Source: an uncultured Candidatus Saccharibacteria bacterium
GTDB lineage: Bacteria; Patescibacteriota; Minisyncoccia; UBA6257; Colwellbacteraceae
Direction: 5' to 3'
Length of the DNA: 64,000 bases
Assembly (NCBI GenBank): GCA_964609135.1
Contig: CAZSQQ010000001.1
Span: 56,673-120,672, forward strand
In this document: piece after piece, positions 4,641 through 60,901 of the stretch
Numbering within the stretch: the stretch's first letter is position 1
Layout of the letters: each line of letters starts with the position of its first letter
The notes under the pieces: model-generated
What the model was told of the DNA's origin: nothing
Seen by the model: the letters and a program-made list of their open reading frames with translations, nothing else
Database searches by the model: none
Translations under genes and position numbers: made by a program

Positions 4641-4771
4641 TTTGGAGCCGAAGGCGAGAATCCCCCGCACCAGTCCGCCAACGGCGGACGGTGCGGGACT
4701 AGTCCAGCACCGAGCTTCGCTATGGTGCTGGGGAACCCGCGACCTTCACTTTACCCCTCACCTTTTTCAAG
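4641..4771 (-). other. GC-rich highly structured leader/possible small RNA between tRNA-Thr and prfB start
   Basis: Nested hairpins (CCCGCACC[GTCCGCC-N3-GGCGGAC]GGTGCGGG; CCAGCACC...GGTGCTGG); about 60% GC in an AT-rich genome; six-frame ORF over it implausible. Confidence 0.3.
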
Positions 4772-4845
4772 AGCCGAAGAGAGGAGTTGAACCTCCAACC
4801 TCTCCCTTACGAAGGGATTGCTCTGCCATTGAGCTACTTCGGCGT
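4772..4845 (-). tRNA. tRNA-Thr (anticodon CGU)
   Basis: Hand-folded cloverleaf: acceptor GCCGAAG/CTTCGGC, D-arm GCTC-AATGGCA-GAGC, anticodon loop TTCGTAA, T-arm GGAGG-TTCAACT-CCTCT; no encoded CCA. Confidence 0.8.
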
Positions 4846-4955
4846 AAAAGCATTATAACAAAAGGTGGGGACTCACGAAAGCACTGCCCCCGCCTGACGG
4901 CGGGCAAGTCTGCCACTGCTTGTCCGCCTCTGGCGGAAGCTACTTCGGCCTGAAA
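4846..4955. other. GC-rich hairpin-dense region (possible structured RNA/terminators)
   Basis: Hairpins GCCCGCC-GTCA-GGCGGGGGC and GTCCGCC-TCT-GGCGGA; about 60% GC. Confidence 0.25.
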
Positions 4956-6666: not shown

Positions 6667-7056
6667 GTGCAGGGAGGTCTAGCGATGCGTTACCTTCGCG
6701 ACAACTTGAGCGGACTCACAGTCTTCGCAATTGCGGCCATCGCCATCATCTCGGGAATCCCAGCGGGGCGAGCAACAGTCGCCTTCGGAGACTGGCGGGC
6801 AATGCTCCCGCTAGGCCTCGGGGCGGCATCTGCGATTCCGTTAGGAAGCCTCGCCGGCACGAAGTACGAAGATAGGTTCGTCACCACGGTGTTTTACAGC
6901 GTCGTGTTCGGGTCTTTCTTCAGCTTGGGAATGGTGATTGGCGGCGCCTACGATCCGCTCTTCTTCATTCTCGAGGTTGTACTTCTCGTCCTAGCCGTCT
7001 TCGGCGGAGCTGTTCTTGGCTTCACCGTCGTCGACCAGATCCGCAAGATAATGTAA
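6667..7056 (+). CDS. small membrane protein (GC-rich, likely foreign)
   Basis: 3-4 TM helices; GC markedly higher than flanks; start may be the internal Met at 6685. Confidence 0.4.
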   Translation: MQGGLAMRYLRDNLSGLTVFAIAAIAIISGIPAGRATVAFGDWRAMLPLGLGAASAIPLGSLAGTKYEDRFVTTVFYSVVFGSFFSLGMVIGGAYDPLFFILEVVLLVLAVFGGAVLGFTVVDQIRKIM

Positions 7057-14444: not shown

Positions 14445-14708
14445 ATGGTTAGGACAATAAAACAAAGCGAGAAAGATTTATACCAATGCGGGGAGTGCGG
14501 CTTTCATTACGAAGATCGCGTACAAGCCGAGAAATGCGAGGAGTGGTGCAAAGAACATCACAGTTGCAACATAAAAATCACTGCAGGTGACGGGAATCGA
14601 ACCCGCGTATCTTGCTTGCCCCGTGACCATAACAAGGATTGCTTGCTCTTTGTGAGCGGACGATGGGAATGGTTCGACTGCGCTCACCACAAGTCGAACC
14701 CCCTTTGA
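14445..14708 (+). CDS. small zinc-ribbon protein (paralog of 37228-37404); 3' end uncertain
   Basis: YQCGECGFHYED...KCEEWCKEHHSCN; the ORF has no stop until 14708 and runs through the tRNA-like element starting about 14582. Confidence 0.4.
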   Translation: MVRTIKQSEKDLYQCGECGFHYEDRVQAEKCEEWCKEHHSCNIKITAGDGNRTRVSCLPRDHNKDCLLFVSGRWEWFDCAHHKSNPL

Positions 14709-32270: not shown

Positions 32271-32334
32271 TGTAAAATTATATTGACCCTTCGATATGAC
32301 TCAGGGTCAATCCTGAGCCTGCCGAATGGATTGA

Positions 32335-37227: not shown

Positions 37228-37404
37228 CTACCTATTGAAAGCCGACTTGCTCTCCAGAGAATCCTTAATTATGTCCAAATTACAGCTATGATTTTTACTG
37301 CACCAAGTCTCGCATTTCTTAGCCGTTTCTTCATCCTCATAATGAAATCCGCACTCCCCGCATTGATATAAAATTTTTCCTTCCTTCTCGGATTTGTTAA
37401 CCAT
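37228..37404 (-). CDS. small zinc-ribbon protein (58 aa), paralog of 14445 ORF; not in ORF track
   Basis: MVNKSEKEGKILYQCGECGFHYEDEETAKKCETWCSKNHSCNLDIIKDSLESKSAFNR; the antisense ORF 37183-37371 is spurious. Confidence 0.5.
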   Translation of the reverse strand: MVNKSEKEGKILYQCGECGFHYEDEETAKKCETWCSKNHSCNLDIIKDSLESKSAFNR

Positions 37405-44778: not shown

Positions 44779-45414
44779 CTATACAAAATTCATATTTTCT
44801 TCCTTTAAAAACTTTTGAAGTATAGAATTATTAGAAATAATAAATCTGTTACTGAAACCTAAACCAAATTCATTTTCATCTTTAAGAGGTTTTAGCTTTA
44901 ACAACTTTCTCATTTCGAGTATAAAAAGATCCATATATGATCTTTCTTCCGGTATAAAAAGAGTATACACACTTGGTCCTGTTTTTTTAAATTCTGGATA
45001 CCTACTAATCTCATAAAAAAGGTTATATTTTTTAACTATAAAATCTAGATATTTTGAAGTTAAAACCACGCTTTCTAAATTACTTGCTTCATCTGTACAA
45101 TTCTTTAGTAGTTTTTCCAAATCATGCTCAAATAATCCAATGGAACCCTTTTTAAGAATTAGAAAAGATTTTAAGTAATTTTCTATACTTTGATGGAAAA
45201 GAAATAAAAATGTTTCGATGCCCATTCTACATAAAATTCTACCAGCAAAATATAAATCAGTTCCTTTCTCAGCGTATCCACTAAAACTTTTTCTAGATAT
45301 TTTTGAAATTAATTTATTAGACTTTTTGGGATACAAATTTTGACCAAATTGCAACTCACAATAATTTTTAACGAATTTGTAATCGCTAAAATTTCTTATA
45401 CTCTGATTTGCCAT
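44779..45414 (-). CDS. hypothetical protein in low-GC island (possible HEPN-like helical protein)
   Basis: 211 aa, very AT-rich; helix pattern FHQSIENYLKSFLILKKGS...EHDLEKLL; no firm motif. Confidence 0.35.
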   Translation of the reverse strand: MANQSIRNFSDYKFVKNYCELQFGQNLYPKKSNKLISKISRKSFSGYAEKGTDLYFAGRILCRMGIETFLFLFHQSIENYLKSFLILKKGSIGLFEHDLEKLLKNCTDEASNLESVVLTSKYLDFIVKKYNLFYEISRYPEFKKTGPSVYTLFIPEERSYMDLFILEMRKLLKLKPLKDENEFGLGFSNRFIISNNSILQKFLKEENMNFV

Positions 45415-45495
45415 ACATAATCTTAGTTCTCAATCATTTCTTCGACCTTTTGCTTGAGATTCTAACTGAATTATCAATCTTAAAATAGGTGCCTA

Positions 45496-46674
45496 TTAAA
45501 CCCTGCTCATGACTACAGTTTGATTTTTTATTCTTGAAGTAAGTATTCGCAGAAACTTTAATGGGCAACTTTCTACGAAACTTCTAAATAGCCACGCTTC
45601 TTTATCTTCTAGAACTTTGTCTAGATACTCTGGTTGATACCTCACAAGTTCACTCATAAAAAACATGGTGAGATAAATAACTATATCTTCATGTATTGGA
45701 AATCTCTGATCATCAATAATCATAGGAAGGGTGATATCGAAAGAAGTATTATCTAGCAAATACTTTGGTTCTATTGATGAGTCAAATATCTCTTTTAGTA
45801 TCTTCCAACAATTTATCACTCCGTAGTTAGTCGCCTCCAGAGAAGGATAAGAATCTAAAGATATTACCTTATCTTCCTTAAATTGATAAAAATCTAATTC
45901 TAGCCATTCCATTCTATTAAATTGGAATATATCGCGAAAGGCTAGGTCAGCTTTTGTCGGCATAGATACAAACTCAAAATATTCATCAAATTTTTTAAAA
46001 TTCTCATCCAAGATGGTTTTAGTAATGTCTTTCGGGATAGCTAGAACTGACCAAGCCCTTTTCGTATCCTTATCAAAACAAATACGATGAATTACTGAGC
46101 CTATATTTAGATCTCCGAATTTACACTCTAAGTATTGGTACGAAATTTCTATATTATAACTAAATAGGTCTACTACCTTAAATTTCTTCGGCGGTTCTAT
46201 TTGGAAAACTTCTTTGTAAAATAAATAAAATACTTGATTGTCCCCGTGATTAACATCAAGATACTTGTTAATCAAATCACTTACAAATTGATCTTTACTG
46301 TAATAAATGCCGTGAGATACTTTATCTTGTAGGCTAGGATTTTTTAACAAGATAAACGCCTTAACTAAATTTAAGAAAGAGTAATAATAAAGAAGGGAAG
46401 AAGAGCGAAAGTTAGTTTTGGTTGCTACTTCCCAATAATTATTTGCTTGACGGATAAAGGCTCTAAATCTATGCCACGTATTCTCAAATAATGTTTCGGG
46501 TACATTAAACTTCGAAAACAATTCGTAGGCTGCCGACTTAACTTCTGAAACATGAATCAACAAAAGCCATAGTTCTTGTTCTATATCTAGAGAAGTACCC
46601 ATTTCTATCGTGGAAAAAGGTGGATCGTATCTCCAACTATCTATTCTTCTCAGTTGTGGTGCACCATTTGTCAT
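45496..46674 (-). CDS. hypothetical protein in low-GC island (candidate accessory/defense)
   Basis: 392 aa, no recognisable catalytic motif; about 30% GC. Confidence 0.35.
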   Translation of the reverse strand: MTNGAPQLRRIDSWRYDPPFSTIEMGTSLDIEQELWLLLIHVSEVKSAAYELFSKFNVPETLFENTWHRFRAFIRQANNYWEVATKTNFRSSSLLYYYSFLNLVKAFILLKNPSLQDKVSHGIYYSKDQFVSDLINKYLDVNHGDNQVFYLFYKEVFQIEPPKKFKVVDLFSYNIEISYQYLECKFGDLNIGSVIHRICFDKDTKRAWSVLAIPKDITKTILDENFKKFDEYFEFVSMPTKADLAFRDIFQFNRMEWLELDFYQFKEDKVISLDSYPSLEATNYGVINCWKILKEIFDSSIEPKYLLDNTSFDITLPMIIDDQRFPIHEDIVIYLTMFFMSELVRYQPEYLDKVLEDKEAWLFRSFVESCPLKFLRILTSRIKNQTVVMSRV

Positions 46675-46774
46675 ATTATTCCCAAAAACTAATTTTGGTC
46701 TTTGGAGAGTTTAGTAATCTTTTCTTTTTTCTTTGCTAAAAATTCCTTCAAAACCTCCTTTGGCTCGCGGTGGA

Positions 46775-47347
46775 TCATCTTCTTCCCCTGTTATGAGTAG
46801 CAATAGAAACTATCGAGAAAATGTCTTCTCCCTCTTTTAGAGCATCTAACAACTTCTTAAACATGTAAGCTTTGGGCATATTCGTTTTCTCTTGAATCAT
46901 CAAAAGTTTTGCTAACAATATTAGAAACTCTATGCGATATTCTCCAAAATTACTAATGCCTTGATATTCCTTAATTTTATCCTTGTGTGATTCAAATAAA
47001 TTTTTGATATCTAATGCTATTCCCCGTTCTTTTTCACTATTAACAGGCGAGGTTTCATTCCAAATTTCTATCAAAAAATCCAAAAATTTCTTAATCTTCA
47101 CCTGTTTTGAATTCATCTTAATAAGAAGATCTACTGCCCAGTGAATATGCTTAGGAGTTCTAATATTAGACCAGCCTCCATTTTTCTTAACTTGTCGATA
47201 TTTTATCAAAATATCAAATTTACTTAGTTTACCTTGATATACGCCCACAATTATCTTCGGTTCTGGTTCAAGAATCGTGATGGGCTCAAAAACGCTTCCG
47301 TCTTTATTGAAGGTCATCCACTTCTTTATATCTTCTGGTCTTTCCAT
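46775..47347 (-). CDS. putative type II restriction endonuclease (partner of MTase)
   Basis: 190 aa; start overlaps MTase stop by 1 nt (coupled); no clear PD-ExK identified. Confidence 0.3.
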   Translation of the reverse strand: MERPEDIKKWMTFNKDGSVFEPITILEPEPKIIVGVYQGKLSKFDILIKYRQVKKNGGWSNIRTPKHIHWAVDLLIKMNSKQVKIKKFLDFLIEIWNETSPVNSEKERGIALDIKNLFESHKDKIKEYQGISNFGEYRIEFLILLAKLLMIQEKTNMPKAYMFKKLLDALKEGEDIFSIVSIATHNRGRR

Positions 47348-47348
47348 T

Positions 47349-48191
47349 TCAAAACAATTTCGGGTTCGATTTTAGATCCTTAAATCTTTTTATCGATAGG
47401 TTTAAATATTTTTTCTCTGTATCTATTCCAATGAACTTTCGATCATTTAAAACAGCCGCCAATCCAGTTGTAGAACTGCCAGTGAAGGGATCCAGTATTA
47501 AATCTCCTTTCTTTGTACTAGCTAAAATTATTCTATTCAATAAATCAATAGGTTTTTGAGTAGGATGTTTACCAAATTTCTTTTCTCCGTTTTTTGGAGT
47601 ACCGATAACCCAAACTGATCTCATTTGCTTTCCTGGCTTTTTAATGAAATCTTTCAAATGCCAATTACCTTCCTTAATTAATTTGTAATTAAATGTATGT
47701 TTCGCTTTTTTATCCTTTCTCGCCCATATTAAAGTTTCGTGACTGGCAGTAAAATAGCGACCGCTCAGATTAGGTGACGCATTCGGTTTAAACCAAGATA
47801 TATCGTTCAAAATATGATATCCCAAAGCCTGTAATGCGTACCCACACTGATATATTGAATGATAAGTCCCGCTCACCCAAAGAGTACCACTTGGTTTAAG
47901 AACTCTTTTGCACGCTTTAAGCCAACTATAATGAAAATCATAATCATCTTTAAAGCCTTTACTTTTATCCCAATCTCCTTTGTTAACACTAACTCTTCGA
48001 CCCGCATGCACGGTAAAACCACCGTTGGAAAGATTGTAGGGGGGATCCGCAAAAATCATATCAATTGAATTCTCTGGTATTTTCTCTAAAAGCTTTAGGC
48101 TATCGCCATGATATAAAACAAAATCTCCTTGAATGGAGTAAGGTTTTTGCTTGATTGAGGATAGTATTTTCTTATCTGTTTGGATCATCAA
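47349..48191 (-). CDS. DNA methyltransferase (beta-class N6-adenine/N4-cytosine)
   Basis: Motif IV DPPY (IFADPPYNLS) N-terminal; motif I FxGxG (DPFTGSSTTG) C-terminal. Confidence 0.8.
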   Translation of the reverse strand: MMIQTDKKILSSIKQKPYSIQGDFVLYHGDSLKLLEKIPENSIDMIFADPPYNLSNGGFTVHAGRRVSVNKGDWDKSKGFKDDYDFHYSWLKACKRVLKPSGTLWVSGTYHSIYQCGYALQALGYHILNDISWFKPNASPNLSGRYFTASHETLIWARKDKKAKHTFNYKLIKEGNWHLKDFIKKPGKQMRSVWVIGTPKNGEKKFGKHPTQKPIDLLNRIILASTKKGDLILDPFTGSSTTGLAAVLNDRKFIGIDTEKKYLNLSIKRFKDLKSNPKLF

Positions 48192-48250: not shown

Positions 48251-48293
48251 CCTTCGACGGGGGCTTCGACTGAGCTCAGCCGAATGTCCTCAG
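48251..48293. repeat. GC-rich repeat (inverted copy of element at 59568-59600)
   Basis: CTTCGACTGAGCTCAGCCGAATGTCCTCAG approximates revcomp of CTGAGGACATTCGACCGAGCTCAGTCGAGG. Confidence 0.6.
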
Positions 48294-48304
48294 AACAAGT
48301 TAGC

Positions 48305-49537
48305 CTAAATCAGCTTCTCTATTCTAACACCAATTAACCTTATCTTTTTATTTCGAGGATTTTCTCTTTTATCCAAAAACGGCGCAAGCAACCGCAACGC
48401 CTCAAATTTCAGAGTTCCCAAGTCTGACGCTGGTTTAGCTAAAGTATGCGCCCGGGTTTTAGTCTCAAAGTCCGCGAAACGTACCTTAATCGCCACCGTC
48501 CTAAACCCCCTCAATTCGCCTATTCGCCTATTCCCGCCGGAGGCGGGCAGGCGCGCTTGTCCGCCCCTGGCGGAAATTAGAGAACGGTCCGCCAAACGAT
48601 CAATAACGCTCTCGCAAAGTTCATTCAACCGCTCAGAAATAAATCTCGCATCCTTCGTATCCTCCGAAAAAGTTTCCTCTTCTCCGATTGATTTCGCTTC
48701 ATACTCTTCTACGACCGGTGAATCATCTCTACCTCTTACTTTTTCATACAAATCCAGTCCCCATTTGCCCATCATCTTTTCCATTTCCTCTTTCGAAAAC
48801 TTTTTCATGTCGCGGACCAGTTTCACGCCCAACTTCAAAAACATTTCTTCAGTCTTCGGCCCTATCCCCGGAATCTTCCGAATATGCATAGGCTCCAAAA
48901 ACGCTTCGGCCTCTTCCTCACGCACAATAGTCAGTCCATCGGGCTTATTCATTCCCGAGGCAATCTTCGCAATCAATTTATTAGGCCCCACGCCAACCGA
49001 TACCGTGAGCTTCCGTTTTTCTTTAACTTCCTTTTTTATCTTTTTGCAAAGCTCCCTCGCTTTTTCATACCTATCATCAACCATTCGCCTATTCGCGCGA
49101 ATTAGAGAATGGTCTCCGGCAACGAAACTCAATCCTTCGGCAGACTCAGGATTGACCCTGAACAGAGTCGAAGGGGTCAAATCTGCGTAAGCTTCGTCAA
49201 CACTTGCCTGTTCAACCAGTGCAACATGTGTACGAATGATTTCCATTATCTTTTCGGATTCCTCCGCATACTTTCCCATGTTCACTCCGATGAAAACAGT
49301 CTCTGGCTCGCCCTTCCTCCTTGCAATTTCCGACAACCTCCAAGCTTCCGATATAGGCATGGCCGAATGGATCCCATACTCCCGCGCCTTATAATTCGCG
49401 GTTGAAACAACGCCTCTCCCGCGCCCATCCATCGGATCCGCCCCCACCACAACTGGCAATCCCTCAAGCCGCGGCTTATCCCGCTCCTCAATCGCGGCAA
49501 AGAAAGCGTCCATATCGAAATGAGCAACTATCCTCAT
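48305..49537 (-). CDS. dinB: DNA polymerase IV (DinB), with two in-frame repeat insertions
   Basis: MRIVAHFDMDAFFAAIEERD N-terminus; 410 aa (about 50 aa longer than typical) because of repeat-encoded inserts. Confidence 0.85.
   Translation of the reverse strand: MRIVAHFDMDAFFAAIEERDKPRLEGLPVVVGADPMDGRGRGVVSTANYKAREYGIHSAMPISEAWRLSEIARRKGEPETVFIGVNMGKYAEESEKIMEIIRTHVALVEQASVDEAYADLTPSTLFRVNPESAEGLSFVAGDHSLIRANRRMVDDRYEKARELCKKIKKEVKEKRKLTVSVGVGPNKLIAKIASGMNKPDGLTIVREEEAEAFLEPMHIRKIPGIGPKTEEMFLKLGVKLVRDMKKFSKEEMEKMMGKWGLDLYEKVRGRDDSPVVEEYEAKSIGEEETFSEDTKDARFISERLNELCESVIDRLADRSLISARGGQARLPASGGNRRIGELRGFRTVAIKVRFADFETKTRAHTLAKPASDLGTLKFEALRLLAPFLDKRENPRNKKIRLIGVRIEKLI
48512..48588. repeat. palindromic repeat copy A (expanded variant) inside dinB
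   Basis: CAATTCGCCTATTCGCCTATTC-[CCGCCGGAGGCGGGCAGGCGCGCTTGTCCGCCCCTGGCGG]-AAATTAGAGAA; encodes ...SARGGQARLPASGGNRRIGE... Confidence 0.6.
49081..49112. repeat. palindromic repeat copy B inside dinB
   Basis: CCATTCGCCTATTCGCGCGAATTAGAGAATGG (arms CCATTC/GAATGG; core palindrome ATTCGCGCGAAT); encodes LIRANRRMV in-frame. Confidence 0.65.
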
Positions 49538-49581: not shown

Positions 49582-49613
49582 CTCTATTCGCCCATTCGCG
49601 CGAATTAGAGAAG
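49582..49613. repeat. palindromic repeat copy C (intergenic)
   Basis: CTCTATTCGCCCATTCGCGCGAATTAGAGAAG. Confidence 0.65.
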
Positions 49614-49865
49614 AGAAAGAATGTGACGGACAGCCGGCTTTTGGTTTGGGGCTAAGCGATAAAACATCTGTAAACTCTTCTGATCTCTTTCCACAATATC
49701 AAGAGAATCTAGAATCCTAAGGTGCTTGGAAGTAGCCTTAAATGACAATTTAATCTCGCTGGCAATCTCCCCCACAGCGGCCTCGCGGTTCTGTTTCAGA
49801 TACTTCAAAATTGCCAAACGTCGCCTGTTGGCCAGAGCCTTTAGAACCCTCTCCAATTCTTTCAT
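49605..49865 (-). CDS. ArsR-family transcriptional regulator
   Basis: 86 aa; RRLAILKYL...VGEIASEIKLSFKATSKHLRIL. Confidence 0.6.
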   Translation of the reverse strand: MKELERVLKALANRRRLAILKYLKQNREAAVGEIASEIKLSFKATSKHLRILDSLDIVERDQKSLQMFYRLAPNQKPAVRHILSLL

Positions 49866-49887: not shown

Positions 49888-49918
49888 ACTATTCGCCTAT
49901 TCGCGCGAATTAGAGACA
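49888..49918. repeat. palindromic repeat copy D (intergenic)
   Basis: ACTATTCGCCTATTCGCGCGAATTAGAGACA. Confidence 0.65.
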
Positions 49919-50019
49919 TAAGGAAATCGAGGAAACGCTTGCCAAAAGTTCAAGCGGGCTATAAGGTAAACCTAATCCAACCCTGACAGATCTTCGACAA
50001 AAACGAAAGGACAAAACAT

Positions 50020-50595
50020 ATGGGAAAGGTTCGGCATGGCACGATCGAACTCATCGTGGGCGGCATGTACTCGGGGAAGAGCGAAGAGCTTATCCGCCGA
50101 GTCGAAAGGGTCTTGATTGCCAAGCGCGCGGTGCAGGTCTTCAAACCGTCGATCGTCCCGGGTGAAGGGGAGGTTGTAGCCCACAACGGCAGGTCGGCGG
50201 CGGCGATCGCAGTCACGAGTCCTGAGGAGCTTATTCAACTACTCAAGCCCGAGACCGCGACCGTTGCAATCGACGAAATCCAGTTCTTCGACTATCGCAT
50301 CGTGAATGCCGTCCGCGCAATCGCAAAGCAAGGGCGGCGCGTCATCTGCGCTGGTCTTGACCTCGACTTCCGCGGAGAACCCTTCGGCTCGGTGCCGGAA
50401 CTCTTGGCCGTCGCGCAGGAGGTCATGAAGCTCACGGCCATCTGTGTCGTCTGCGGAGAACCCGCTACCATGAGCCAGCGGCTCGTGGACGGGAATCCCG
50501 CGAAGTGGGACGACCCAACGGTCGTAATCGGCGCCGAAGAGAAGTATGAAGCGCGCTGCCCTGAGTGCCACGAGATCGAACGACCGGTACCATAG
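50020..50595 (+). CDS. tdk: thymidine kinase
   Basis: GGMYSGKSEEL P-loop; C-terminal zinc ribbon CVVCGEPA...CPECH; about 60% GC. Confidence 0.85.
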   Translation: MGKVRHGTIELIVGGMYSGKSEELIRRVERVLIAKRAVQVFKPSIVPGEGEVVAHNGRSAAAIAVTSPEELIQLLKPETATVAIDEIQFFDYRIVNAVRAIAKQGRRVICAGLDLDFRGEPFGSVPELLAVAQEVMKLTAICVVCGEPATMSQRLVDGNPAKWDDPTVVIGAEEKYEARCPECHEIERPVP

Positions 50596-50620
50596 AAAGG
50601 CCAGGTGGTACAATAAAGGC

Positions 50621-51508
50621 ATGCGACAGTACTTAGACGTCCTATCCAAAGTCATGACCGAAGGGACTGACCGCTCCGATACGGAGGAAGTTTCAACTCG
50701 CTCCACGACAGCGCAATTCATGCGCTTCAACATGCAGGACGGCTTCCCGGCAGTCACGACGAAACGGCTCGCCTTCAGAACGGCGGTCGCGGAACTTCTC
50801 TGGTTCATCTCGGGGAGTTCGAACGTAAACGAACTCCACAAATTAGGCGTTAAGATCTGGGATGGGGACGCCTATAAGCCCTCCTGGCTTCCAAAAGCGC
50901 AATTTCCCGGAGATGTCGGACGTAATTACTCCAAGCAGTGGCGCGAGTGGCTCGCGCCCGACGGCCGGCATGTGGACCAACTAGGCATAGCGATAAATCT
51001 AATCCAGGAAAAACCGTGGACGGCAAGAGCGCTCGTCTCGGCCTGGAACCCGGGCGAACTCGAAGCGACGGCGCTTCCCGCCTGCCACGTACTCTTCCAG
51101 TTCTACTCGGCCGGCGGAAAGCTCTCGCTAACCATGTACCAGAGAAGCTGCGACATGTTCCTCGGCGTCCCCTTCGACACCGCGGAATTCGCCCTGCTTC
51201 TCCACCTCGTGGCACAGATCACGAACCTCGAACCGTGGGAACTGATTCACGTTCTCGCGGAGCCGCATATCTATGAGGGGCACTTCGAGGCCGTGAAGGA
51301 ACAGCTCACGCGCGAACCATTTCCGCATCCGAAGCTCTGGCTGAATCCGGAGCTAAGGACGCTCGATCAAGTGGTCGCGAAATACCGCGAACTCCTGCAA
51401 AGGGCGGAAGGCGAAGAAAAGCCCCTGAAGCTCATGGATGAAGTGGCCCGGCTCGAGGGCTATAAGTCGCATGAACCCCTGAAGGCCGAAATGGTGGTCA
51501 TCAAATGA
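50621..51508 (+). CDS. thyA: thymidylate synthase (ThyA)
   Basis: MRQYLDVL...RFNMQDGFPAVTTKR...ELLWFISG; catalytic Cys in ALPACHVLFQFY; start trimmed from ORF 50546. Confidence 0.85.
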   Translation: MRQYLDVLSKVMTEGTDRSDTEEVSTRSTTAQFMRFNMQDGFPAVTTKRLAFRTAVAELLWFISGSSNVNELHKLGVKIWDGDAYKPSWLPKAQFPGDVGRNYSKQWREWLAPDGRHVDQLGIAINLIQEKPWTARALVSAWNPGELEATALPACHVLFQFYSAGGKLSLTMYQRSCDMFLGVPFDTAEFALLLHLVAQITNLEPWELIHVLAEPHIYEGHFEAVKEQLTREPFPHPKLWLNPELRTLDQVVAKYRELLQRAEGEEKPLKLMDEVARLEGYKSHEPLKAEMVVIK

Positions 51509-52029
51509 TCGGACGAAGCGTGATCTCCATCGTGGCCGCGATGGACCGGAACCGCGTGATAGGGGTCGAGAACCGCCTGCCGTGGCTCATGCCAGCCGAC
51601 ATGAAGAGATTCCGAGATCTCACGATCGGGAAACCCATCCTCATGGGCCGGAAGACCTTCGAATCCATTCTCGCCTCGCTCGGGAAACCACTCCCCAACC
51701 GCCTGAACATCATTCTCACTCGTGACCAGAACTACAAGGCGCCGAACGGCTGCCGAGTGGTTCATTCTGTAGATGATGCACTCGCAATGGCCAACGGAGC
51801 GGAAGAGGTGATGGTCGCAGGCGGCGCGGACATCTTCCAGCAATTCCTTCCCTACGCCGATTCGGTCTACATGACCGAAATCGATTCTGACTTCGAGGGC
51901 GACGCCTCCTTCCCAGAGATGCCGGAGACGGAGTGGCGGCGGGTTCAGAGCGTCCGACACGAACCGGACGAGAAGAATCCTCATCCCTACTCCTTCCAGC
52001 TCTACGTTCGGAAGGAGAAGCTGAACTAG
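51505..52029 (+). CDS. folA: dihydrofolate reductase
   Basis: ISIVAAMDRNRVIG...LPW...GRKTFESI; ATGA overlap with thyA. Confidence 0.85.
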   Translation: MIGRSVISIVAAMDRNRVIGVENRLPWLMPADMKRFRDLTIGKPILMGRKTFESILASLGKPLPNRLNIILTRDQNYKAPNGCRVVHSVDDALAMANGAEEVMVAGGADIFQQFLPYADSVYMTEIDSDFEGDASFPEMPETEWRRVQSVRHEPDEKNPHPYSFQLYVRKEKLN

Positions 52030-52048
52030 TCCTTTCACCGCAAACGGG

Positions 52049-52080
52049 AGCCCGCACGAGTACTCGTGCGGGCTCTTCAA
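52049..52080 (+). terminator. terminator-like perfect hairpin after folA
   Basis: GAGCCCGCACGAGT/ACTCGTGCGGGCTC followed by TTCAAATTT. Confidence 0.45.
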
Positions 52081-52117
52081 ATTTGTATGCCCTGATTTTT
52101 AGGATAAAATTCATAAG

Positions 52118-52555
52118 ATGACCAAGAAACTAGTCAACCTCCGATACGCCAAAGGAAGCAAATACGGAGAAACGCTAAAAGAAATAAAAACTGCAAAAGT
52201 TTGCCCCTTCTGCCCGAAAACTTTCAAGTGGCATACTAAGCCAACTCTCCGACGAACCAAAAACTGGTTAGTTACAGAAAATTTCAACTCTTACAAGAAC
52301 GCTCGCTACCATTTTCTTGTCATAAGTAAATCTCACAAGGAGGGTTTCCAAGACCTCACTCTTCCCGATTGGCGACAAATTTCAGAACTTGTCCGCTGGG
52401 CTATTCGGAAATACAAAATCAAAGGAGGTGGTTTGATCCTGCGTTTTGGAGACAGTAACTATACGGGGGCAACAGTTACACATTTGCATTTACATTTAAT
52501 AGTCCCGCAACTTAAGCGCGGCAAGGCTCTCAGGGTAGAATTCCCTATCGGATAA
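52118..52555 (+). CDS. HIT-like nucleotide hydrolase/transferase (histidine-triad-like)
   Basis: C-terminal H-x-H-x-H-x-x (THLHLHLIV); N-terminal CPFC. Confidence 0.45.
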   Translation: MTKKLVNLRYAKGSKYGETLKEIKTAKVCPFCPKTFKWHTKPTLRRTKNWLVTENFNSYKNARYHFLVISKSHKEGFQDLTLPDWRQISELVRWAIRKYKIKGGGLILRFGDSNYTGATVTHLHLHLIVPQLKRGKALRVEFPIG

Positions 52556-52556
52556 G

Positions 52557-53381
52557 TTACTTTACGAGAATTAATTTCACTCCGGCCATCCGGAACACCC
52601 GTTCAACGTTCAAGTAAGCGTTGCCGGTCTGGAAATAACATTTCTTGATTCCCGACTGAGAAATAATCTGGGCGCAAGGCACGCAAGGAAAAACATTTAT
52701 GTAGATGCTTGTTCCCTCGAGACTCAAACCCCGTCTTGCGGCTTCACCAACTAAAAGCTGTTCCACGTGAATCGAAGTTGAAAGATCTCTTTTGGTTCCA
52801 GCCTCAATGAAGTCACGGGGATTCCCTTCAATATATGAAATATGGTCGGAGGGCAAATGGTGGCTAACGTCCTCAAGAATCACTTTGCCGTCCTTAACTA
52901 TGACCGCCCCGACCTGCCGCCACCAGTCGGAACTTTTTTCGGCCTGCTTCTTCGCGAGTTCCATTATTTTCCTATCGAAATCGGAGTCGGACACTTCCGC
53001 TTCCTGCGGCAGGTTCTCCGAATAAACATTTTTTTCATCCCAGCGCAGGAAAATGTTGTCATAGAAAACTCTGTTCTTTGGGAAATATTTGTTTACGAAA
53101 TTCAGGGAAATCGCCTCGTCGGCGGTAACGATTTCCGAATCGCCTATTTCGGACAGAGATTTTTTGCCCAGAACCTTTACCGATTTGAATAAGCTAAGAG
53201 ATTCGACAAGCTTTTTTATAGTTTCCGGAGAAAGTGCACGGATTTCCTTGTGGATCCCGGAAAATTCATCGATAAAATCTTCGCCCAAAATATAGAGGAT
53301 ATCAGCGTCATTATGTTTCTTGAAAAATTCGAGATATCCCTCGTGGAGTACCGGAATATAGAGCACGATAACGCGCTTCAT
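52557..53381 (-). CDS. two-domain protein with C-terminal dCMP/cytidine deaminase zinc-binding domain
   Basis: HVEQ...PCVPC zinc-ligand motifs in the C-terminal half; N-terminal about 130 aa unknown. Confidence 0.55.
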   Translation of the reverse strand: MKRVIVLYIPVLHEGYLEFFKKHNDADILYILGEDFIDEFSGIHKEIRALSPETIKKLVESLSLFKSVKVLGKKSLSEIGDSEIVTADEAISLNFVNKYFPKNRVFYDNIFLRWDEKNVYSENLPQEAEVSDSDFDRKIMELAKKQAEKSSDWWRQVGAVIVKDGKVILEDVSHHLPSDHISYIEGNPRDFIEAGTKRDLSTSIHVEQLLVGEAARRGLSLEGTSIYINVFPCVPCAQIISQSGIKKCYFQTGNAYLNVERVFRMAGVKLILVK

Positions 53382-54957: not shown

Positions 54958-55788
54958 TTACAAAGTGGTAATGGGCCTCGATTGAAGTATATAGATGTTC
55001 TCTTTCTCCAAAGCCCATTCTATATCTTGCGGTGAACCGTAATGATTTTCAATCTTTAGAGCCAATTTAGCCAATTCTATAACCTGATCATCATCTAGGG
55101 CCTGCTCACTCTTTTTATCGTCCGGTACTTCCACTTCTTTTGTCTCACCATTTTTAAAAATCATCATTGTCTCCTGGGTTTTAATGTCACTGTTTTTTAT
55201 CTCCAGCGTTTTCTTATCAACGACAAAACTGTCTGGAGTAATCATCCCCTGGACCATCATTTCTCCCAAGCCGAAGCCGGCCTCAATCATCAACTCGTTC
55301 TCATCTTTTGTAATGGGGTTTACCGTAAAGACAACTCCGGAAACCTCACTATCAATCATTTTTTGAACTACTACAGCTACCGCCAACTGGTCTTCGCTAA
55401 CATTCTTGTCCTCCGCATAGGCCAGAGCTCCTTTAGATTTAATCGAGTTACAGCAATCCTTTATTCTGTTAATCAAATCTTCCCTGGTTACGTTTAAATA
55501 TGTCTCGAGTTGTCCCGCCCAAGAGGCTGACGAGGAATCTTCAGCCACTGCCGAAGATCTAACTGCAACTCTTTCTGCCCCTAACTTGTCAAAGGCGCTT
55601 AGAATCTCTGCTCTAAGAGCCTCATCGACGGAGTCATATGCGAACTTCCTAAAAACATCGGTGGTAACAATAAAACCAGGGGGCACCGGAATGCCAGCCC
55701 TAGTTAACTCGCCCAGCGACGCCCCCTTACCGCCTACGAGAGAGCTATCGCTCAAACTTACCTCTTCGAATCGGAGCAGGTTTGCCAT
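54958..55788 (-). CDS. stand-alone PEP synthase/PPDK N-terminal ATP-binding (ATP-grasp) domain protein
   Basis: LVGGKGASLGEL...GIPVPPGFIVTTDVF ... PQDIEWA...IYILQSRPIT; 276 aa with no swivel or PEP-utilizers_C domain. Confidence 0.75.
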   Translation of the reverse strand: MANLLRFEEVSLSDSSLVGGKGASLGELTRAGIPVPPGFIVTTDVFRKFAYDSVDEALRAEILSAFDKLGAERVAVRSSAVAEDSSSASWAGQLETYLNVTREDLINRIKDCCNSIKSKGALAYAEDKNVSEDQLAVAVVVQKMIDSEVSGVVFTVNPITKDENELMIEAGFGLGEMMVQGMITPDSFVVDKKTLEIKNSDIKTQETMMIFKNGETKEVEVPDDKKSEQALDDDQVIELAKLALKIENHYGSPQDIEWALEKENIYILQSRPITTL

Positions 55789-56662: not shown

Positions 56663-57805
56663 CTATAAAGTGTCAAGACTAAAGGGTGTTGGATCTATAG
56701 TAAACACTTTATTTTTCAACTCCATCGGCAAATACCAAACCAACTGGTAGAACATACCAGCATGACCGGTTTTAGCCAACGGAACGTTGGGAGAAACGAT
56801 GGCTCTAACTTTATCGTGAATGCCAAACCATAACGGCAACAGCGTAGGATCCAGTGCGCCCATAATGTCCTTATACATCGAGAAATTTCGCGCCTGTTCG
56901 TATGATAAGATGAATAACTCGTATTCTTCTTGAGTTAGTTTCTCTTTGGCTTGCTCCTTCAAAGATTCAATACGAGATTTCATTTCCTCATATCTTTTCA
57001 CGAGAGATTCGTTTTCACCCCGAAATTCAACCGCGTGAGTTAACATATTGTAAAGTGGCAACATAGAATCACGCATTCTGGTTTGTTCCAACGGTACAGA
57101 CAATTCTTTTTTAAAAGAAGCACTATCGGGGTCCGTTTCATCATTTATTACCTCCTGAATTATTTTGGCTATTTTATTCCAAAGAACGTTAATTTCACTA
57201 GTATTTTTGTGAGTGTGGGCATCTATAAGCATAGTTATCTCGGCAACTGGGTCCTTAGTTTTGGGGTTGTTTGCAAGTAAATGAACAAGTTTTACGCCGC
57301 TTAAGGCCTGACGAAGATATAAGTCGGCATACTCGCTCTGTAGCAGGTCTCGCTGCACGCGAACAACTCGCCCCTCAAAATCCTCTACGTCTTCAGTCGC
57401 ATCAATAAACTTACGTATCAAATTTTTAAGGTTATCAACATAAAAGTCGTGCAGTGGGCCATCAGCAAATAAGTAATTGACTACCCAAAAACGATAACAG
57501 AACAGTTTATTGAATCTCTGATCTGTGTTAACCAAAAACTCCAGATTTTTCTGATCTCCGCTCTCGTAATCCTTTTTAATCTTATCGAATCCGGCAAACA
57601 ACTCGTCGTGTGCCCAATCTCCGTATTCTTGATATTTCTTAGAATCCGCACCAACCTTTTGAGCAATTTCTTCAAAATACGGCACAATGGGAGGAAACTT
57701 TCTAGGGTAAGTAAACATAAACCCCTCGATGTCATTGGGTATATATCTAGGAAACTTTAATAATTGCTCGTCAATCTTCATAAATGTAACCATCATTACC
57801 GTCAA
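56663..57805 (-). CDS. hypothetical protein (operon partner of GHKL/PEP-swivel protein)
   Basis: 380 aa, no recognised motif; 35-nt overlap with upstream gene. Confidence 0.4.
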   Translation of the reverse strand: MTVMMVTFMKIDEQLLKFPRYIPNDIEGFMFTYPRKFPPIVPYFEEIAQKVGADSKKYQEYGDWAHDELFAGFDKIKKDYESGDQKNLEFLVNTDQRFNKLFCYRFWVVNYLFADGPLHDFYVDNLKNLIRKFIDATEDVEDFEGRVVRVQRDLLQSEYADLYLRQALSGVKLVHLLANNPKTKDPVAEITMLIDAHTHKNTSEINVLWNKIAKIIQEVINDETDPDSASFKKELSVPLEQTRMRDSMLPLYNMLTHAVEFRGENESLVKRYEEMKSRIESLKEQAKEKLTQEEYELFILSYEQARNFSMYKDIMGALDPTLLPLWFGIHDKVRAIVSPNVPLAKTGHAGMFYQLVWYLPMELKNKVFTIDPTPFSLDTL

Positions 57806-59039
57806 GAATTACCCGTTGGCCGTCACGCAATAGAGCTGTGGCGGTCTGTGTGCCGACGACTGCGGGTATATTAAACTCTCTAGCCACAATTGCCGCATGG
57901 CATAAATTGCCACCCAAATCAGTAATTATTCCGCCAGCACGTCTAATGGCTAACAAAAAGTGCGGTCGCGTCATTGCTGTTACAATAATATCGCCGCGTT
58001 CTACCCGAGCCATTTCCTTTTCCATATCGCCAGACATAAACATATTTACTTGCCGAACCGTGCCAATCACTTTACCGGCTGAGGCCGGGTAACCACTCAG
58101 AACTCTTTTGGGCTTCTTCTCAAATGGCTTGAAATACTCCCGCATCGTTTCCTCTAGCTCCTTGTACTGATCGGATGATTTTAACCAGCCTTTCTTATCG
58201 TGGGTAATGGGTATGCCTTCAATGTGTAAATCACCGATAATTTGCTTGATATCTTGGTTGGGAGTAAGTCCTATTTTATCGTAGGTAGTAACCAATCGAC
58301 CGCGGCGATAATTATGGAAACCGTAATAACTCTTATTGAGCCCACTTAGTTGGTAACCCCACCATCCCCAAGCCTTACCTCCCTTAAATTCAAAAGCAAA
58401 ATCGTTCTTTTTATCGTCAATAATCTTGGGAACAAACGGCGGACAAACTTCCCCATTGAAAATCAATTCCAGTTCGCCATTTTGAACGAATGGACCGAAC
58501 CTCAAACCAAATTCTTCTTTTATGTTGCTCAATAATTTCTCGGAAAGTTTAACTTTCAACCGCCTAATAATCACTGCCGTCCCACTTTTCTCGGGATCCA
58601 CGCCTCGATTGATAACAAACGGATATTTATACCAGTCTCCGCTCTCCAGCCAATGGTCTTCGTCATACTCCATAACATATTCTTCCTCGGAATTCCTAGG
58701 GCTAGTTATTAAAGTAAATCCTTTCCCCAAAAATGATGTCGAGGTCTTGAGTCCCAGACCAAATTCTCCCAGTTGAGCTTTCTTCTCCGAAAACCCCAAT
58801 CTGATGGATTTGGCGGCTTGCTCCTCGGTCATACCTCTGCCGTTGTCCATCACGGTTATAAGATCAGGAGTTATATCCACAGAAACGCTCAACTTCTCGT
58901 TGGCCAAACGGGCATCTATGGAGTTGTCGATGAGCTCTGACAAGGCCTCCTGAATGGAATAGCCTGTCTGGCTAATCTTGGTCATAATGCTCCGGTGGGG
59001 AGATATGTCTATGTATTTGGTAGTAGATTTATCCGCCAT
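57771..59039 (-). CDS. GHKL (MORC/HATPase_c-like) ATPase fused to PEP-utilising-enzyme mobile phospho-histidine domain
   Basis: Bergerat N-box ELIDNSIDA, G1 DNGRGM, G2 GEFGLGLKTS; C-terminal GGNLCHAAIVAREFNIPAVVG (swivel His). Confidence 0.65.
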   Translation of the reverse strand: MADKSTTKYIDISPHRSIMTKISQTGYSIQEALSELIDNSIDARLANEKLSVSVDITPDLITVMDNGRGMTEEQAAKSIRLGFSEKKAQLGEFGLGLKTSTSFLGKGFTLITSPRNSEEEYVMEYDEDHWLESGDWYKYPFVINRGVDPEKSGTAVIIRRLKVKLSEKLLSNIKEEFGLRFGPFVQNGELELIFNGEVCPPFVPKIIDDKKNDFAFEFKGGKAWGWWGYQLSGLNKSYYGFHNYRRGRLVTTYDKIGLTPNQDIKQIIGDLHIEGIPITHDKKGWLKSSDQYKELEETMREYFKPFEKKPKRVLSGYPASAGKVIGTVRQVNMFMSGDMEKEMARVERGDIIVTAMTRPHFLLAIRRAGGIITDLGGNLCHAAIVAREFNIPAVVGTQTATALLRDGQRVILDGNDGYIYED

Positions 59040-59069: not shown

Positions 59070-60422
59070 TCAAGTGTTTCCCATAAAACCACTGTTTCTT
59101 AACTTCTTGTGGTAGGTGATCGCGAACCGGTGAGCTTCGTCGCGAACTCGAATCAAAACTTTTTTGGTGACGCCCTTGGGAATAGAACCTACAAACCTGT
59201 TTGCTTTCCTATCCGGACCCTTGGCGATCCCGACAGTAGGAATTCTCAAACCCGATTCTAACAAGACCTGTTTAGCCGCGTTCACCTGCCCCATTCCCCC
59301 ATCAACCAAAATCACGTCAGGCAAAGGCCAGGGATTGTGAAACCGGCGGCGCAAAACCTCTTTTAACATTCCCACGTCATTCGCTCCTATTATTGTCTTG
59401 ATCCTGAACTTACGATACTCACCCTTGTCGGGCCGGCCGTCTTTAAAGACAACCATAGAACCCACGGCATAATTGCCAGAGATGTTAGAGATGTCATACC
59501 CTTCGACGCGGCTCAGGGCGAGCCCTCCTCTGCGGCTCAGGGCGAGCCCTCCTCTGCGGCTACCCTCGGCCTGAGGACATTCGACCGAGCTCAGTCGAGG
59601 GCCTCGGGTCGAAGGCAGGGCAGGCCCCTCCACAATTTCTGGCTCGGTAATTAGGGCTATGTCCTGGATGTGCTGAAGAGCAAAAATCTGACCTCGGAAC
59701 TTCACCGCCTCTTCGAATTCCAAACTTTTACTCGCCTTCTTCATATCTTTCTCCAAAGACTTCAAAATCTGTTTTTTCTTGCCGTTAAAGAAAAGTTTTA
59801 TGTTTCTTATATTTTTCAGATAAGTTTTTCTATCGATTGCGCCAATGCAGGTGCCAGGGCAAAGCTTAATTTCATATTCAAAGCATCCCTTGGAAAACTT
59901 GCCTACCCTTCCTGGTTGATGAATGCTGAAAGGAAATATCCTTCTAATTATCTTTAAGGCGTCGCGGATGCTGGTCGCGGAAGTAAAAGGACCGAACCCT
60001 TCGACGCGGCTCAGGGCAGGCCCTCCGGCGCGGCTCAGTGCAAGTCTTTTCTCCTTACTCGTAGCAAGCTCTTTTCCCCGCACAAGCAATACGCGCGGGA
60101 ACTTATCTTTGGTAATCTCTACGTAAAGAAAACTTTTGTCATCCTTTTCCCGGACGTTATAGGGCGGACGACGTTTTTTAATAAGCTCGGCTTCCAAAAT
60201 CAGCGCCTCAATTGCAGTATCAGTTTTCTTGTAATCAATTTTCGCAATTTCACTTACCAACTTCTCCGTTTTCCAATCGCCGGAGCGCAAAAAATAACTG
60301 GAGACTCTCCGTTTCAAGTTTCCCGCTTTCCCGACATAAAGAATGCTCCCCCGCTTATCCTTCATGAGATATATGCCTGGGGTGTCCGGAAGATTTTTGT
60401 ATAAATTCTCCTTACTTTTCAC
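59070..60422 (-). CDS. uvrC: excinuclease ABC subunit C-like (GIY-YIG N-terminus, RNase-H-like C-region), with in-frame GC-rich repeat insertions
   Basis: GIY-YIG GIYLMKD...ILYVGKAGNLKRRV; C-terminal ILVDGGMGQVNAA; inserts encode ALSRVEG-type repeats. Confidence 0.7.
   Translation of the reverse strand: MKSKENLYKNLPDTPGIYLMKDKRGSILYVGKAGNLKRRVSSYFLRSGDWKTEKLVSEIAKIDYKKTDTAIEALILEAELIKKRRPPYNVREKDDKSFLYVEITKDKFPRVLLVRGKELATSKEKRLALSRAGGPALSRVEGFGPFTSATSIRDALKIIRRIFPFSIHQPGRVGKFSKGCFEYEIKLCPGTCIGAIDRKTYLKNIRNIKLFFNGKKKQILKSLEKDMKKASKSLEFEEAVKFRGQIFALQHIQDIALITEPEIVEGPALPSTRGPRLSSVECPQAEGSRRGGLALSRRGGLALSRVEGYDISNISGNYAVGSMVVFKDGRPDKGEYRKFRIKTIIGANDVGMLKEVLRRRFHNPWPLPDVILVDGGMGQVNAAKQVLLESGLRIPTVGIAKGPDRKANRFVGSIPKGVTKKVLIRVRDEAHRFAITYHKKLRNSGFMGNT
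59501..59630. repeat. GC-rich repeat block inside uvrC (tandem GCGGCTCAGGGCGAGCCCTCCTCT x2 plus palindromic tail)
   Basis: Tandem 24-mers at 59508-59555; the tail CCTGAGGACATTCGACCGAGCTCAGTCGAGG is an inverted match to 48264-48293. Confidence 0.65.
59998..60044. repeat. second GC-rich repeat inside uvrC
   Basis: CCTTCGACGCGGCTCAGGGCAGGCCCTCCGGCGCGGCTCAG, same family as 59501-59630. Confidence 0.6.
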
Positions 60423-60505: not shown

Positions 60506-60901
60506 TTGGGCGTGATAAGCTCTCTAACAAGTTGGCCGTTGGGCCACAATGAGCGTAGGCGTCGCTTTCGATCGGCGCGTCGCGTCTTTGGGATCCTTCA
60601 CCGAGCCAAAGCTCAAGGACTCCTTCGCGACGTGAAAAAGGTCAGGCGAGATGGTTGGCAGAGCCGTTTCGTGGACGTTGGCGTCATCGTCGTTATCGAC
60701 CATGACGGCGTTCACTATGAGCTCCGCGTTATCAACTCTACGATCCTTGCCGTCGTCAAAAGATTCTCCGGAACACCAATGGTGCTAGTCGGGGACGGAG
60801 AATCCAGCGAGGAGACTCTCGCAAAACTCGTAAAGATCATCCCGCCCATAAAGGGCGTGAGGCTAAGGAGGAAAGCACCGAATAAGACGCGGCTTAACTA
60901 A
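60506..60901 (+). CDS. hypothetical protein
   Basis: 131-aa ORF, relatively GC-rich; no motif; start uncertain. Confidence 0.25.
   Translation: MGVISSLTSWPLGHNERRRRFRSARRVFGILHRAKAQGLLRDVKKVRRDGWQSRFVDVGVIVVIDHDGVHYELRVINSTILAVVKRFSGTPMVLVGDGESSEETLAKLVKIIPPIKGVRLRRKAPNKTRLN

Follow-up and report, generated by a model that had tools for sequence, protein, structure and literature searches.

In the canonical thyA-folA operon, the genes for thymidylate synthase (TS; EC 2.1.1.45) and dihydrofolate reductase (DHFR) overlap at their stop and start codons. Replacing Asn177 of TS (Escherichia coli numbering, used here for all conserved TS positions) with Asp moves the preference of the enzyme from deoxyuridine monophosphate (dUMP) to deoxycytidine monophosphate (dCMP), giving 5-methyl-dCMP as the product (PMC8670742, citing Liu and Santi 1992 and Hardy and Nalivaika 1992); PDB entry 1njc is the equivalent N229D mutant with dCMP bound. 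A bulky hydrophobic residue at position 143 keeps water out and leads to methylation, whereas the residue is Asp or Glu in hydroxymethylases (PMC13326640), which give off tetrahydrofolate and do not depend on DHFR (PMC5175136). The T4 gp42 dCMP hydroxymethylase and the CMP hydroxymethylases MilA and BcmA are TS-family members of the latter kind, with Asp at 177 and an acidic residue at 143. Phage D177 homologues, including the dCMP C5-methyltransferases of the Xp12 type, are encoded within 3 kb of dCMP-deaminase-family genes, and a nucleotide route from 5-methyl-deoxycytidine to thymidine bypasses TS (bioRxiv 10.1101/2024.12.05.627091). Here, we describe a TS homologue with Asp177 that is encoded in a tdk-thyA-folA block of a Candidatus Colwellbacteria chromosome, within the candidate phyla radiation (CPR). 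All coordinates refer to the 64,000-nt stretch that was analyzed (contig CAZSQQ010000001.1, forward-strand positions 56,673 to 120,672), hereafter the window.

The segment from approximately 50,006 to 52,076 is a foreign three-gene operon that lies between the native arsR and HIT-family genes of the chromosome. The first gene, tdk (50020-50595, plus strand), encodes a 191-residue homologue of TK1-type thymidine kinase (Pfam TK, 2.9e-44). It is followed on the same strand by a thyA-like gene (50621-51508; 295 residues; Pfam Thymidylat_synt, 2.8e-85) and by folA, which encodes a DHFR (51505-52029; 174 residues; Pfam DHFR_1, 1e-60). All three matches cover the full profile, and the stop codon of the thyA-like gene overlaps the folA start codon in an ATGA on the plus strand (51505-51508), which confirms the contiguous arrangement described in the original prediction. 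The true start of the thyA-like gene is 50621 rather than position 50546 of the mechanically called open reading frame (ORF), in which the profile begins at residue 27; the later start agrees with all homologues and with the public annotation.

The operon is read from a host-type leader and terminates at a strong hairpin. The leader (49917-50019, plus strand) has the GC content of the host and contains a possible TTGCCA-16-TATAAG promoter, a candidate picked out by reading the sequence, and an AAAGGA ribosome-binding site. It has no Rfam match, and its folding is no better than that of shuffled sequences (z = +0.4 and +2.0). The perfect hairpin that had been predicted to follow the block is present at its 3' edge as a terminator-like palindrome of 14 + 14 nt (52048-52075, plus strand); the 68 nt that span it (52028-52095) have a folding energy of -30.2 kcal/mol (z = -4.65 relative to shuffles). 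A scan for consensus promoters and terminators flagged neither the putative tdk promoter nor this hairpin, whose T-run is weak.

We compared the base composition of the block with that of its surroundings. A block of about 60% GC in a background of about 40% had been proposed; the block does fall at 0.57-0.61, but the window as a whole is at 0.448, so the background figure was a little low. GC is 0.609, 0.574, and 0.585 in tdk, the thyA-like gene, and folA, respectively, and the two 1-kb intervals that make up the block are at 0.580 and 0.591. At third codon positions (GC3), the same genes reach 0.740, 0.709, and 0.766 (z = 2.8-3.4), above every one of the 59 other ORFs in the window (mean 0.456, standard deviation 0.091, maximum 0.611), and codon choice sets them apart from the rest of the window for almost all amino acids (for instance, CTC 0.56 versus 0.13 and ATC 0.77 versus 0.26). 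The step is sharp: GC rises at approximately 50,000-50,050, no more than about 50 nt from the tdk start codon, and drops at approximately 52,050-52,100, at the hairpin. The GC of the thyA-like gene exceeds that of its flanks by 0.131, compared with a mean of 0.034 (standard deviation 0.028, maximum 0.109) for thyA in 78 other genomes. The block is thus compositionally foreign, beyond the mild GC enrichment usual for a conserved gene. The four long antisense ORFs within it (50239-50841, 50850-51215, 51460-52080, and 51716-52114) are by-products of the high GC, as had been suggested, and none has a Pfam match.

The relationships of the encoded proteins were examined next to those of the host lineage. 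The best non-self matches of the ThyA-like protein are 60-64% identical, and the named ones belong to Chloroflexota or Candidatus Limnocylindria; an exhaustive HMMER pass over 1.84 billion representatives returned a best match of 62%, followed by 54%, 51%, and 48%. Neighbor-joining trees place the protein as sister to a clade of Chloroflexota/Limnocylindria type in 99 of 100 bootstraps, apart from all CPR and DPANN sequences, and the grouping persists (98 of 100) after Dayhoff-6 recoding, which blunts composition bias. The nearest relative of Tdk, at 66%, is encoded on a 1-kb sibling contig from the same aquifer; next come enzymes of Chloroflexota/Limnocylindria type at 62-64% and then Thermoanaerobacter-type (Firmicutes) enzymes at 58-60%. 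FolA has matches of 59-62% from mixed sources and no clear affinity: its sister in the trees is always an unnamed match, and its wider neighbors are mixed. The expectation that nearest neighbors would lie outside Patescibacteria therefore held for ThyA and, apart from the sibling contig, for Tdk, and FolA gave no clear donor signal. Incongruence with the host lineage is clear for ThyA and less decisive for Tdk.

ThyA and Tdk derive from a source lineage akin to the enzymes of Chloroflexota/Limnocylindria type. This source lineage is absent from current databases, where the best matches are 62-66% identical, and the direct donor is an unsampled lineage. We also considered Chloroflexota as the donor of the whole block and rejected this candidate, as no sampled genome has the three-gene order; in some genomes of Chloroflexota type, folA comes after thyA and overlaps it in a GTGA, at a GC3 of 0.96-0.98. 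It had been proposed that related genomes might use thyX. Instead, CPR and DPANN species genomes in GTDB commonly have their own ThyA (48-58% identical to the protein in the window), usually followed directly by folA, at local GC. Since the relatives normally own thyA-folA at native GC, the block is a xenolog, either a duplicate or a replacement, and brings no new capability. Overall, a horizontal origin of the tdk-thyA-folA block is well supported, and we hold it with high confidence.

Both junctions of the block are 100% or 99.97% identical across five independent assemblies, which excludes an assembly artifact or chimera. The same proteins are recorded under Candidatus Colwellbacteria bacterium in the metagenome-assembled genome (MAG) GCA_016187165.1 and on one contig of 133.9 kb. 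A second haplotype came from sequencing run SRR12113383, in which a 1,052-bp Logan contig (SRR12113383_2864506, hereafter L087) occurs together with a contig of the window type (L003). Both contigs begin at window position 49952. L087 is identical to the window over 30 nt (49952-49981), first differs at 49982, and stays near-identical until about 50005, with one differing position in the leader upstream of that point, after which similarity collapses. Logan contigs within one accession share no 31-mer (PMC12424806); the common start base and the divergence after exactly 30 nt thus indicate that the two haplotypes branch from one upstream sequence.

Beyond this shared leader, L087 carries a divergent tdk (66% amino acid identity to Tdk in the window; GC 0.60, GC3 0.755), its own terminator hairpin, and then, with no thyA in between, a native-type folA, within which the contig ends. 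This folA has a GC of 0.44, and its product is 47% identical to FolA in the window and groups with CPR FolA. The two tdk alleles differ by a synonymous divergence (dS) of 0.70 and a nonsynonymous divergence (dN) of 0.23 (dN/dS 0.33). The locus is therefore polymorphic in the source aquifer, and a near-identical leader beside such divergent genes argues for recombinational replacement at an existing locus over simple vertical divergence. The block resembles small, compositionally atypical islets of horizontal gene transfer in three respects: GC and GC3 step sharply, its phylogeny conflicts with that of the host, and close relatives differ in its presence or absence. It differs from them in lacking an integrase, tRNA target, direct repeats, or transposase, and its left junction is common to two gene contents, pointing to homologous replacement rather than site-specific insertion.

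In an alignment of 110 homologues, the ThyA-like protein departs from the consensus at 14 of the columns with at least 95% conservation; in the other sequences, such deviations number 1 at the median and 7 at most. Residue numbering was confirmed by alignment to E. coli TS (PDB). Asp occupies the Asn177 position, the pyrimidine-specificity residue, in the motif PFN (here PFD), and its GAC codon (51176-51178, plus strand) is one transition from AAC. Arg21 is replaced by Thr inside a rewritten loop (DRTGTGTRAIFG in relatives, DTEEVSTRSTTA here), and further changes are G95S, R126A, and D205E. R21, G95, R126, N177, and D205 are all canonical in 119 of 119 nearest matches, 80 of 80 GTDB loci, and 80 of 80 viral loci. 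Two of the four phosphate-binding arginines (R21, R126', R127', and R166) are thereby lost to Thr21 and Ala126, while R127 and R166 are kept. The C-terminus ends in ...KAEMVVIK, compared with ...KMAV in relatives, and is two residues longer (IK, from the ATGA junction).

The core of the protein is retained. It shares with canonical TS the TS fold, the Cys of P-x-C-H (C146, followed by H147), E58, Y94, R166, S167, D169, H207, and Y209, and it also has Leu at position 143. An AlphaFold2 model (mean predicted local distance difference test score, pLDDT, of 83.7; predicted template modeling score of 0.88) superposes on E. coli TS with a TM score of 0.79-0.90, and pLDDT falls below 50 at residues 293-295. 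The protein scores 286 bits with Pfam PF00303 (cutoff 24.3) and 264.9 with TIGR03284 (cutoff 108.35). With NF002497, it scores 285.7, under the cutoff of 327; its nearest relative reaches 327.0 and a CPR ThyA 412. In a relative-rate test, unique changes in the window protein were raised 1.5-fold, without significance. To judge from its altered residues, the ThyA homologue is probably not a canonical TS.

The partner proteins differ in how much they have changed. FolA is canonical, with zero deviations at columns at least 90% conserved and 204.5 bits with Pfam PF00186; with NF008037 it scores 159.6, slightly under the cutoff of 168. Tdk scores 246.2 with NF003296 (cutoff 183) and keeps the P-loop GGMYSGKS, the catalytic Glu in DEIQFF, and the zinc-binding cysteines of CVVCG and CPEC, but it is off-consensus at 13 conserved columns. 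Its D-x-R-Y β-hairpin motif is gone: IDNRY in PDB entries 1xx6 and 2ja1 aligns to IVP--, with a two-residue deletion. In the alignment of matches, conservation is 100% for the first Asp of the motif (Val here) and for the deleted Arg and 95% for the second Asp (Pro here). L087 Tdk retains DDRY, and the haplotypes look complementary: the window has a TS homologue and a Tdk without the motif, and L087, which has no thyA at the locus, keeps it. In both CPR Tdk alleles, unique changes outnumber those of the relatives by a factor of about 3.3. The label of thymidylate-synthesis cassette in the original prediction thus stands for FolA and is an assumption for the altered ThyA and for Tdk.

To place Asp177 in context, we surveyed the 150 best representative clusters of TS homologues, of which 142 have N177 and eight have D177, all eight with Leu or Ile at 143. 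The three D177 clusters with readable genomic context are all phage-like: one has TS, small ORFs, and DHFR; one has DNA polymerase A, SNF2, TS, PRA-PH, and a deaminase; and one has TS beside DNA polymerase A. In addition, an Achromobacter phage homologue has D177 and is followed by a deaminase. The ThyA-like protein in the window is just 40-47% identical to the D177 clusters, which indicates that D177 arose here independently. It resembles the Xp12-type phage enzymes in Asp177, a hydrophobic residue at 143, and a deaminase-family gene less than 3 kb away (PMC8670742; bioRxiv 10.1101/2024.12.05.627091), and a DHFR gene lies near some natural D177 examples as it does here. It differs from them in its cellular chromosome with housekeeping flanks, in the lack of a phage replication or deoxynucleoside monophosphate (dNMP) kinase gene, in being nearest to cellular Chloroflexota-type TS, in having a deaminase gene of host composition, and in the loss of two phosphate-binding arginines that natural D177 enzymes keep. 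In contrast to the acidic residue, tetrahydrofolate release, and DHFR independence of the T4 gp42/MilA/BcmA group, the window protein has Leu143 and is coupled to DHFR. Unlike the canonical thyA-folA operon, with which it shares the start/stop overlap and a canonical DHFR, the locus combines Asp177, the rewritten R21 loop, R126A, G95S, D205E, and the longer C-terminus with tdk as an added first gene and a foreign base composition. The R126 position is variable in MilA as well (Lys133'), and the window protein retains S167, the deoxyribose determinant in comparisons with this group.

Together, D177, L143, and translational coupling to an intact DHFR form the signature of a reductive dCMP methylase. 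In the mechanism that we propose, the ThyA-like enzyme would still be active and would no longer be a dUMP-specific TS; it would methylate dCMP, or both pyrimidines, at C5 with methylene-tetrahydrofolate. The products would be 5-methyl-dCMP and dihydrofolate, and FolA would recycle the latter. The adjacent dCMP-deaminase-family enzyme, whose gene is separated from folA by 0.5 kb and from the thyA-like gene by 1.05 kb, could then turn 5-methyl-dCMP into thymidylate. We regard an active cytosine-directed or promiscuous C5-methylase as a tentative assignment, short of an even chance. A cellular thymidylate pathway in reverse order, with methylation before deamination, as otherwise known only from phages such as Xp12, is rather unlikely. 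The foreign operon combined with this mechanistic part is our best overall explanation, and we put it forward as a provisional one that could well be wrong.

Several observations weigh against this explanation. With respect to origin, the donor is unplaced, and the three genes share no single clear nearest clade: Chloroflexota-type tdk sits in the order rpmE-tdk-DUF1385-prfA, unlinked to thyA, and Chloroflexota-type FolA is only 48% identical to FolA in the window. The flanks contain no integrase, tRNA target, att site, target duplication, bracketing repeats, or transposase, and the window has tRNAs only at 4.8 and 14.7 kb. No empty site was found in a scan of Joint Genome Institute (JGI) metagenomes with a YchF probe, which returned 80 loci at 62-74% identity, from relatives too remote to preserve the gene order; none is syntenic for the deaminase, HIT, arsR, or dinB genes. 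With respect to activity, natural D177 homologues keep R21 in 7 of 8 cases, R126 and G95 in 8 of 8 each, and D205 in 7 of 8; the additional losses in the window protein therefore fall outside the known dCMP switch and look more like decay. Isolated parallels do occur among D177 enzymes, namely, a remodeled R21 loop (P0506), a changed D205 (P0394 and phage emuu_LB7), and a lost R127 (emuu_LB7). Comparison with MAG contig JACPKH010000002.1 revealed four single-nucleotide polymorphisms (SNPs) over 13.2 kb. Two of these, at 51480 and 51493, are 13 nt apart, are both nonsynonymous, and both fall in the thyA C-terminal tail (L287P and M291I), and the other two, at 48941 and 57512, are synonymous. 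The deaminase gene has native composition, and because CPR genomes often put a deaminase beside ordinary thyA, its adjacency is not specific. In GC-rich DNA, where antisense frames also stay open for 200 codons, an open frame carries little evidential weight. Finally, a second thyA, thyX, or tdk could lie elsewhere in the genome, beyond the 64-kb window.

The alternative that survives best, which we consider almost as likely as the methylase, is a xenolog decaying under relaxed selection, in which only folA remains under its original constraint and the thyA-like gene and tdk are drifting and dead or nearly so; thymidylate would then come from a second gene outside the window or from the host of the bacterium. 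The deviations at near-invariant columns (14 in ThyA, 13 in Tdk, and 0 in FolA) are distributed as this account would have it, as are the loss of half the phosphate-binding arginines together with the remodeled R21 loop and the two added C-terminal residues, the retention by natural D177 enzymes of residues lost here, and the removal of D-x-R-Y through a deletion. The nonsynonymous SNPs confined to the ThyA tail, the haplotype without thyA at this locus, a score below the NF002497 cutoff that the nearest relative reaches, and the roughly 3.3-fold faster change of the CPR Tdk alleles agree with decay as well. However, no stop codon or frameshift interrupts the genes, Tdk and ThyA are colinear with their profiles from end to end, and all ten core ThyA residues are intact. 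About 15% of invariant columns have changed, fewer than neutrality predicts for such a long branch. The dN/dS of 0.33 over a dS of 0.70 for the tdk alleles indicates purifying selection through most of their history. Moreover, it is rare for a streamlined CPR genome to retain 1.5 kb of dead genes, and the ATGA coupling to a conserved folA persists. Sequence alone cannot separate function from decay.

A cassette of ordinary function, in which thymidylate is made from dUMP and thymidine as usual and the odd residues are tolerated variation, is improbable. Mutagenesis shows that the equivalents of R21 and R126 can each be replaced on their own. Mutants of this kind are in the PDB (1bp0, R23I; 1aiq, R126E), and divergent phage TS genes beside DHFR vary at R21 and D205. 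This reading also draws on the full-length Pfam matches, the TIGR03284 score far above its cutoff, the TS fold of the predicted structure, and the fact that thyA-folA overlap is normal in CPR, DPANN, and some Chloroflexota. It has to contend with Asn177 in 279 of 279 close or named homologues and in the great majority of representative clusters, with the documentation of N177D as a switch to dCMP (PMC8670742; PDB 1njc), and with a combination of N177D, R21T, R126A, G95S, and a lengthened C-terminus that is unprecedented in the sets examined.

More improbable still is a phage-derived DNA-modification module, a remnant or moron of a virus that replaces cytosine with 5-methylcytosine; the module would serve to manipulate nucleotide pools or protect against restriction and not to supply thymidylate. 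The phage-like neighborhoods of three D177 homologues, the annotated phage genome that holds a fourth, the polymorphism of the locus, and a defense-type low-GC island with a type II methyltransferase 2 kb upstream would all suit such a module. The set of tdk, TS homologue, DHFR, and dCMP deaminase also recalls the nucleotide-precursor genes of T4. Yet the best viral matches in IMG/VR reach 49% for ThyA and 52% for Tdk, and a tblastn search of GenBank phages reached 44.5% for ThyA; cellular enzymes of Chloroflexota type are closer, on which grounds we rejected a phage origin. The best 80 viral ThyA relatives all have N177, and the low identity to D177 clusters bespeaks a separate origin of the substitution. 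The block has no dNMP kinase, dCTPase, polymerase, or structural gene and is flanked by housekeeping genes. The leader sequence is absent from IMG/VR, and the Tdk, ThyA, and FolA proteins have no match to PADLOC defense-system models.

Native genes whose high GC was kept through selection or biased conversion without transfer are scarcely credible: conserved genes are somewhat GC-richer than their genomes (thyA on average by 0.034 over its flanks), and in the second lineage, too, the tdk at this site is GC-rich (GC3 0.755), so the high GC has lasted over a dS of 0.70, but the GC excess here is above that of all 78 comparison genomes, the native-type folA of L087 is at an ordinary GC of 0.44, 99 of 100 bootstraps exclude ThyA from the CPR/DPANN clade, and the codon usage departs from that of the window for almost all amino acids.

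The flanks of the block contain housekeeping genes. Upstream lie dinB (48305-49537) and arsR (49605-49865, minus strand), the latter encoding an ArsR-family winged-helix regulator (Pfam HTH_5, 1.5e-9) with native composition (GC 0.444, GC3 0.494). The first host gene downstream encodes a HIT-family protein (52118-52555, plus strand) and has native GC, as does the next gene, which encodes the 274-residue dCMP-deaminase-family protein (52557-53381, minus strand; deaminase domain at residues 133-254). A cytidylyltransferase-like gene and YchF follow. The N-terminal region of the deaminase-family protein, 130 residues in length, has no family match. We considered this protein as an anti-phage dCTP deaminase and judged it a non-member, as it matches those models only across the zinc motif (residues 200-249; NCBIfam 47.8, cutoff 400; PADLOC dCTPase, 2.1e-13).

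The region upstream of the block also contains a 29-nt palindromic repeat (ATTCGCCTATTCGCGCGAATTAGAGA), which occurs in three to four copies within 1.4 kb (48520, 49080-49108, 49583-49611, and 49888-49916) and nowhere else in the window; 0.06 matches are expected by chance. The copy at 49583-49611, with the core ATTCGCGCGAAT, lies between the dinB start and the arsR stop, and that at 49888-49916 lies in the divergent arsR/tdk intergenic region, where it could serve as a putative operator for the ArsR-family protein. Two independent contigs (L002 and L270) break within the latter copy. A 17-mer of the repeat has three matches in IMG/VR, judged likely to be due to chance for a collection of that size. 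The original prediction was right that repeat copies and arsR sit at the upstream edge, but they are present on one side only, with no sign of mobilizing the block.

The low-GC island (44779-48191; GC 0.26-0.35, GC3 0.19-0.32) lies 2 kb upstream of the high-GC block and encodes a HEPN-domain protein, a YaaC-like protein, a type II N6/N4 DNA methyltransferase (PADLOC MTase_II, 1.8e-99), and a 190-residue protein with no family match that is possibly a restriction enzyme. With the two side by side, the interval between 44 and 52 kb resembles a foreign-DNA hot spot. Compared with DNA polymerase IV (7yll), DinB has two in-frame insertions (residues ~123-160 and 318-343), which fall where the palindromic repeat and a GC-rich repeat have copies (48520-48586 and 49080-49175) and recall the Rickettsia palindromic elements, which are found in-frame within genes. 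The GC-rich family, with the core TTCGACnnGGCTCAGGG, is also found inside uvrC (59070-60422) at 59498-59606 and 59996-60044, where it is translated in-frame into peptides such as LALSRAGGPALSRVEGF and ...GGLALSRRGGLALSRVEGY. Related copies are located at 32287-32326, 48258-48293, and 49136-49175, and one copy is inside DinB.

Elsewhere in the window, an inverted repeat pair of 98 nt (14472-14569 and 37280-37377; 74% complementary) is separated by 22.7 kb. Three plus-strand ORFs (4627-4953, 6667-7056, and 60506-60901) have a GC of 0.55-0.58 amid minus-strand, lower-GC surroundings; the first overlaps a tRNA-Thr gene (4771-4843) and is probably spurious. Pyruvate-phosphate-dikinase-like domains are split between a 276-residue protein with PPDK_N and a 422-residue protein with HATPase_c and PEP-utilizers domains, which are encoded 2 kb apart (54958-55788 and 57771-59039) with two other ORFs in between.

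A foreign islet is in itself ordinary; a chromosomal Asp177 TS homologue coupled to DHFR is a new variant. Asp177 recurs in eight clusters and one phage, and the protein also carries changes seen in none of the approximately 430 homologues examined. Automatic annotation calls the protein thymidylate synthase despite a textbook dCMP specificity switch. A CPR bacterium has replaced or doubled its own thyA-folA with a xenolog, and the continuing polymorphism within one aquifer shows gene replacement in a reduced genome while it is under way. Should the enzyme be active, a phage-only reaction would have moved into cellular metabolism as the first chromosomal bacterial dCMP methylase, and a dUMP-free thymidylate route would be suggested for organisms with minimal nucleotide metabolism. 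If it is dead, the locus would be a warning against inferring the thymidylate autonomy of CPR symbionts from annotation only.

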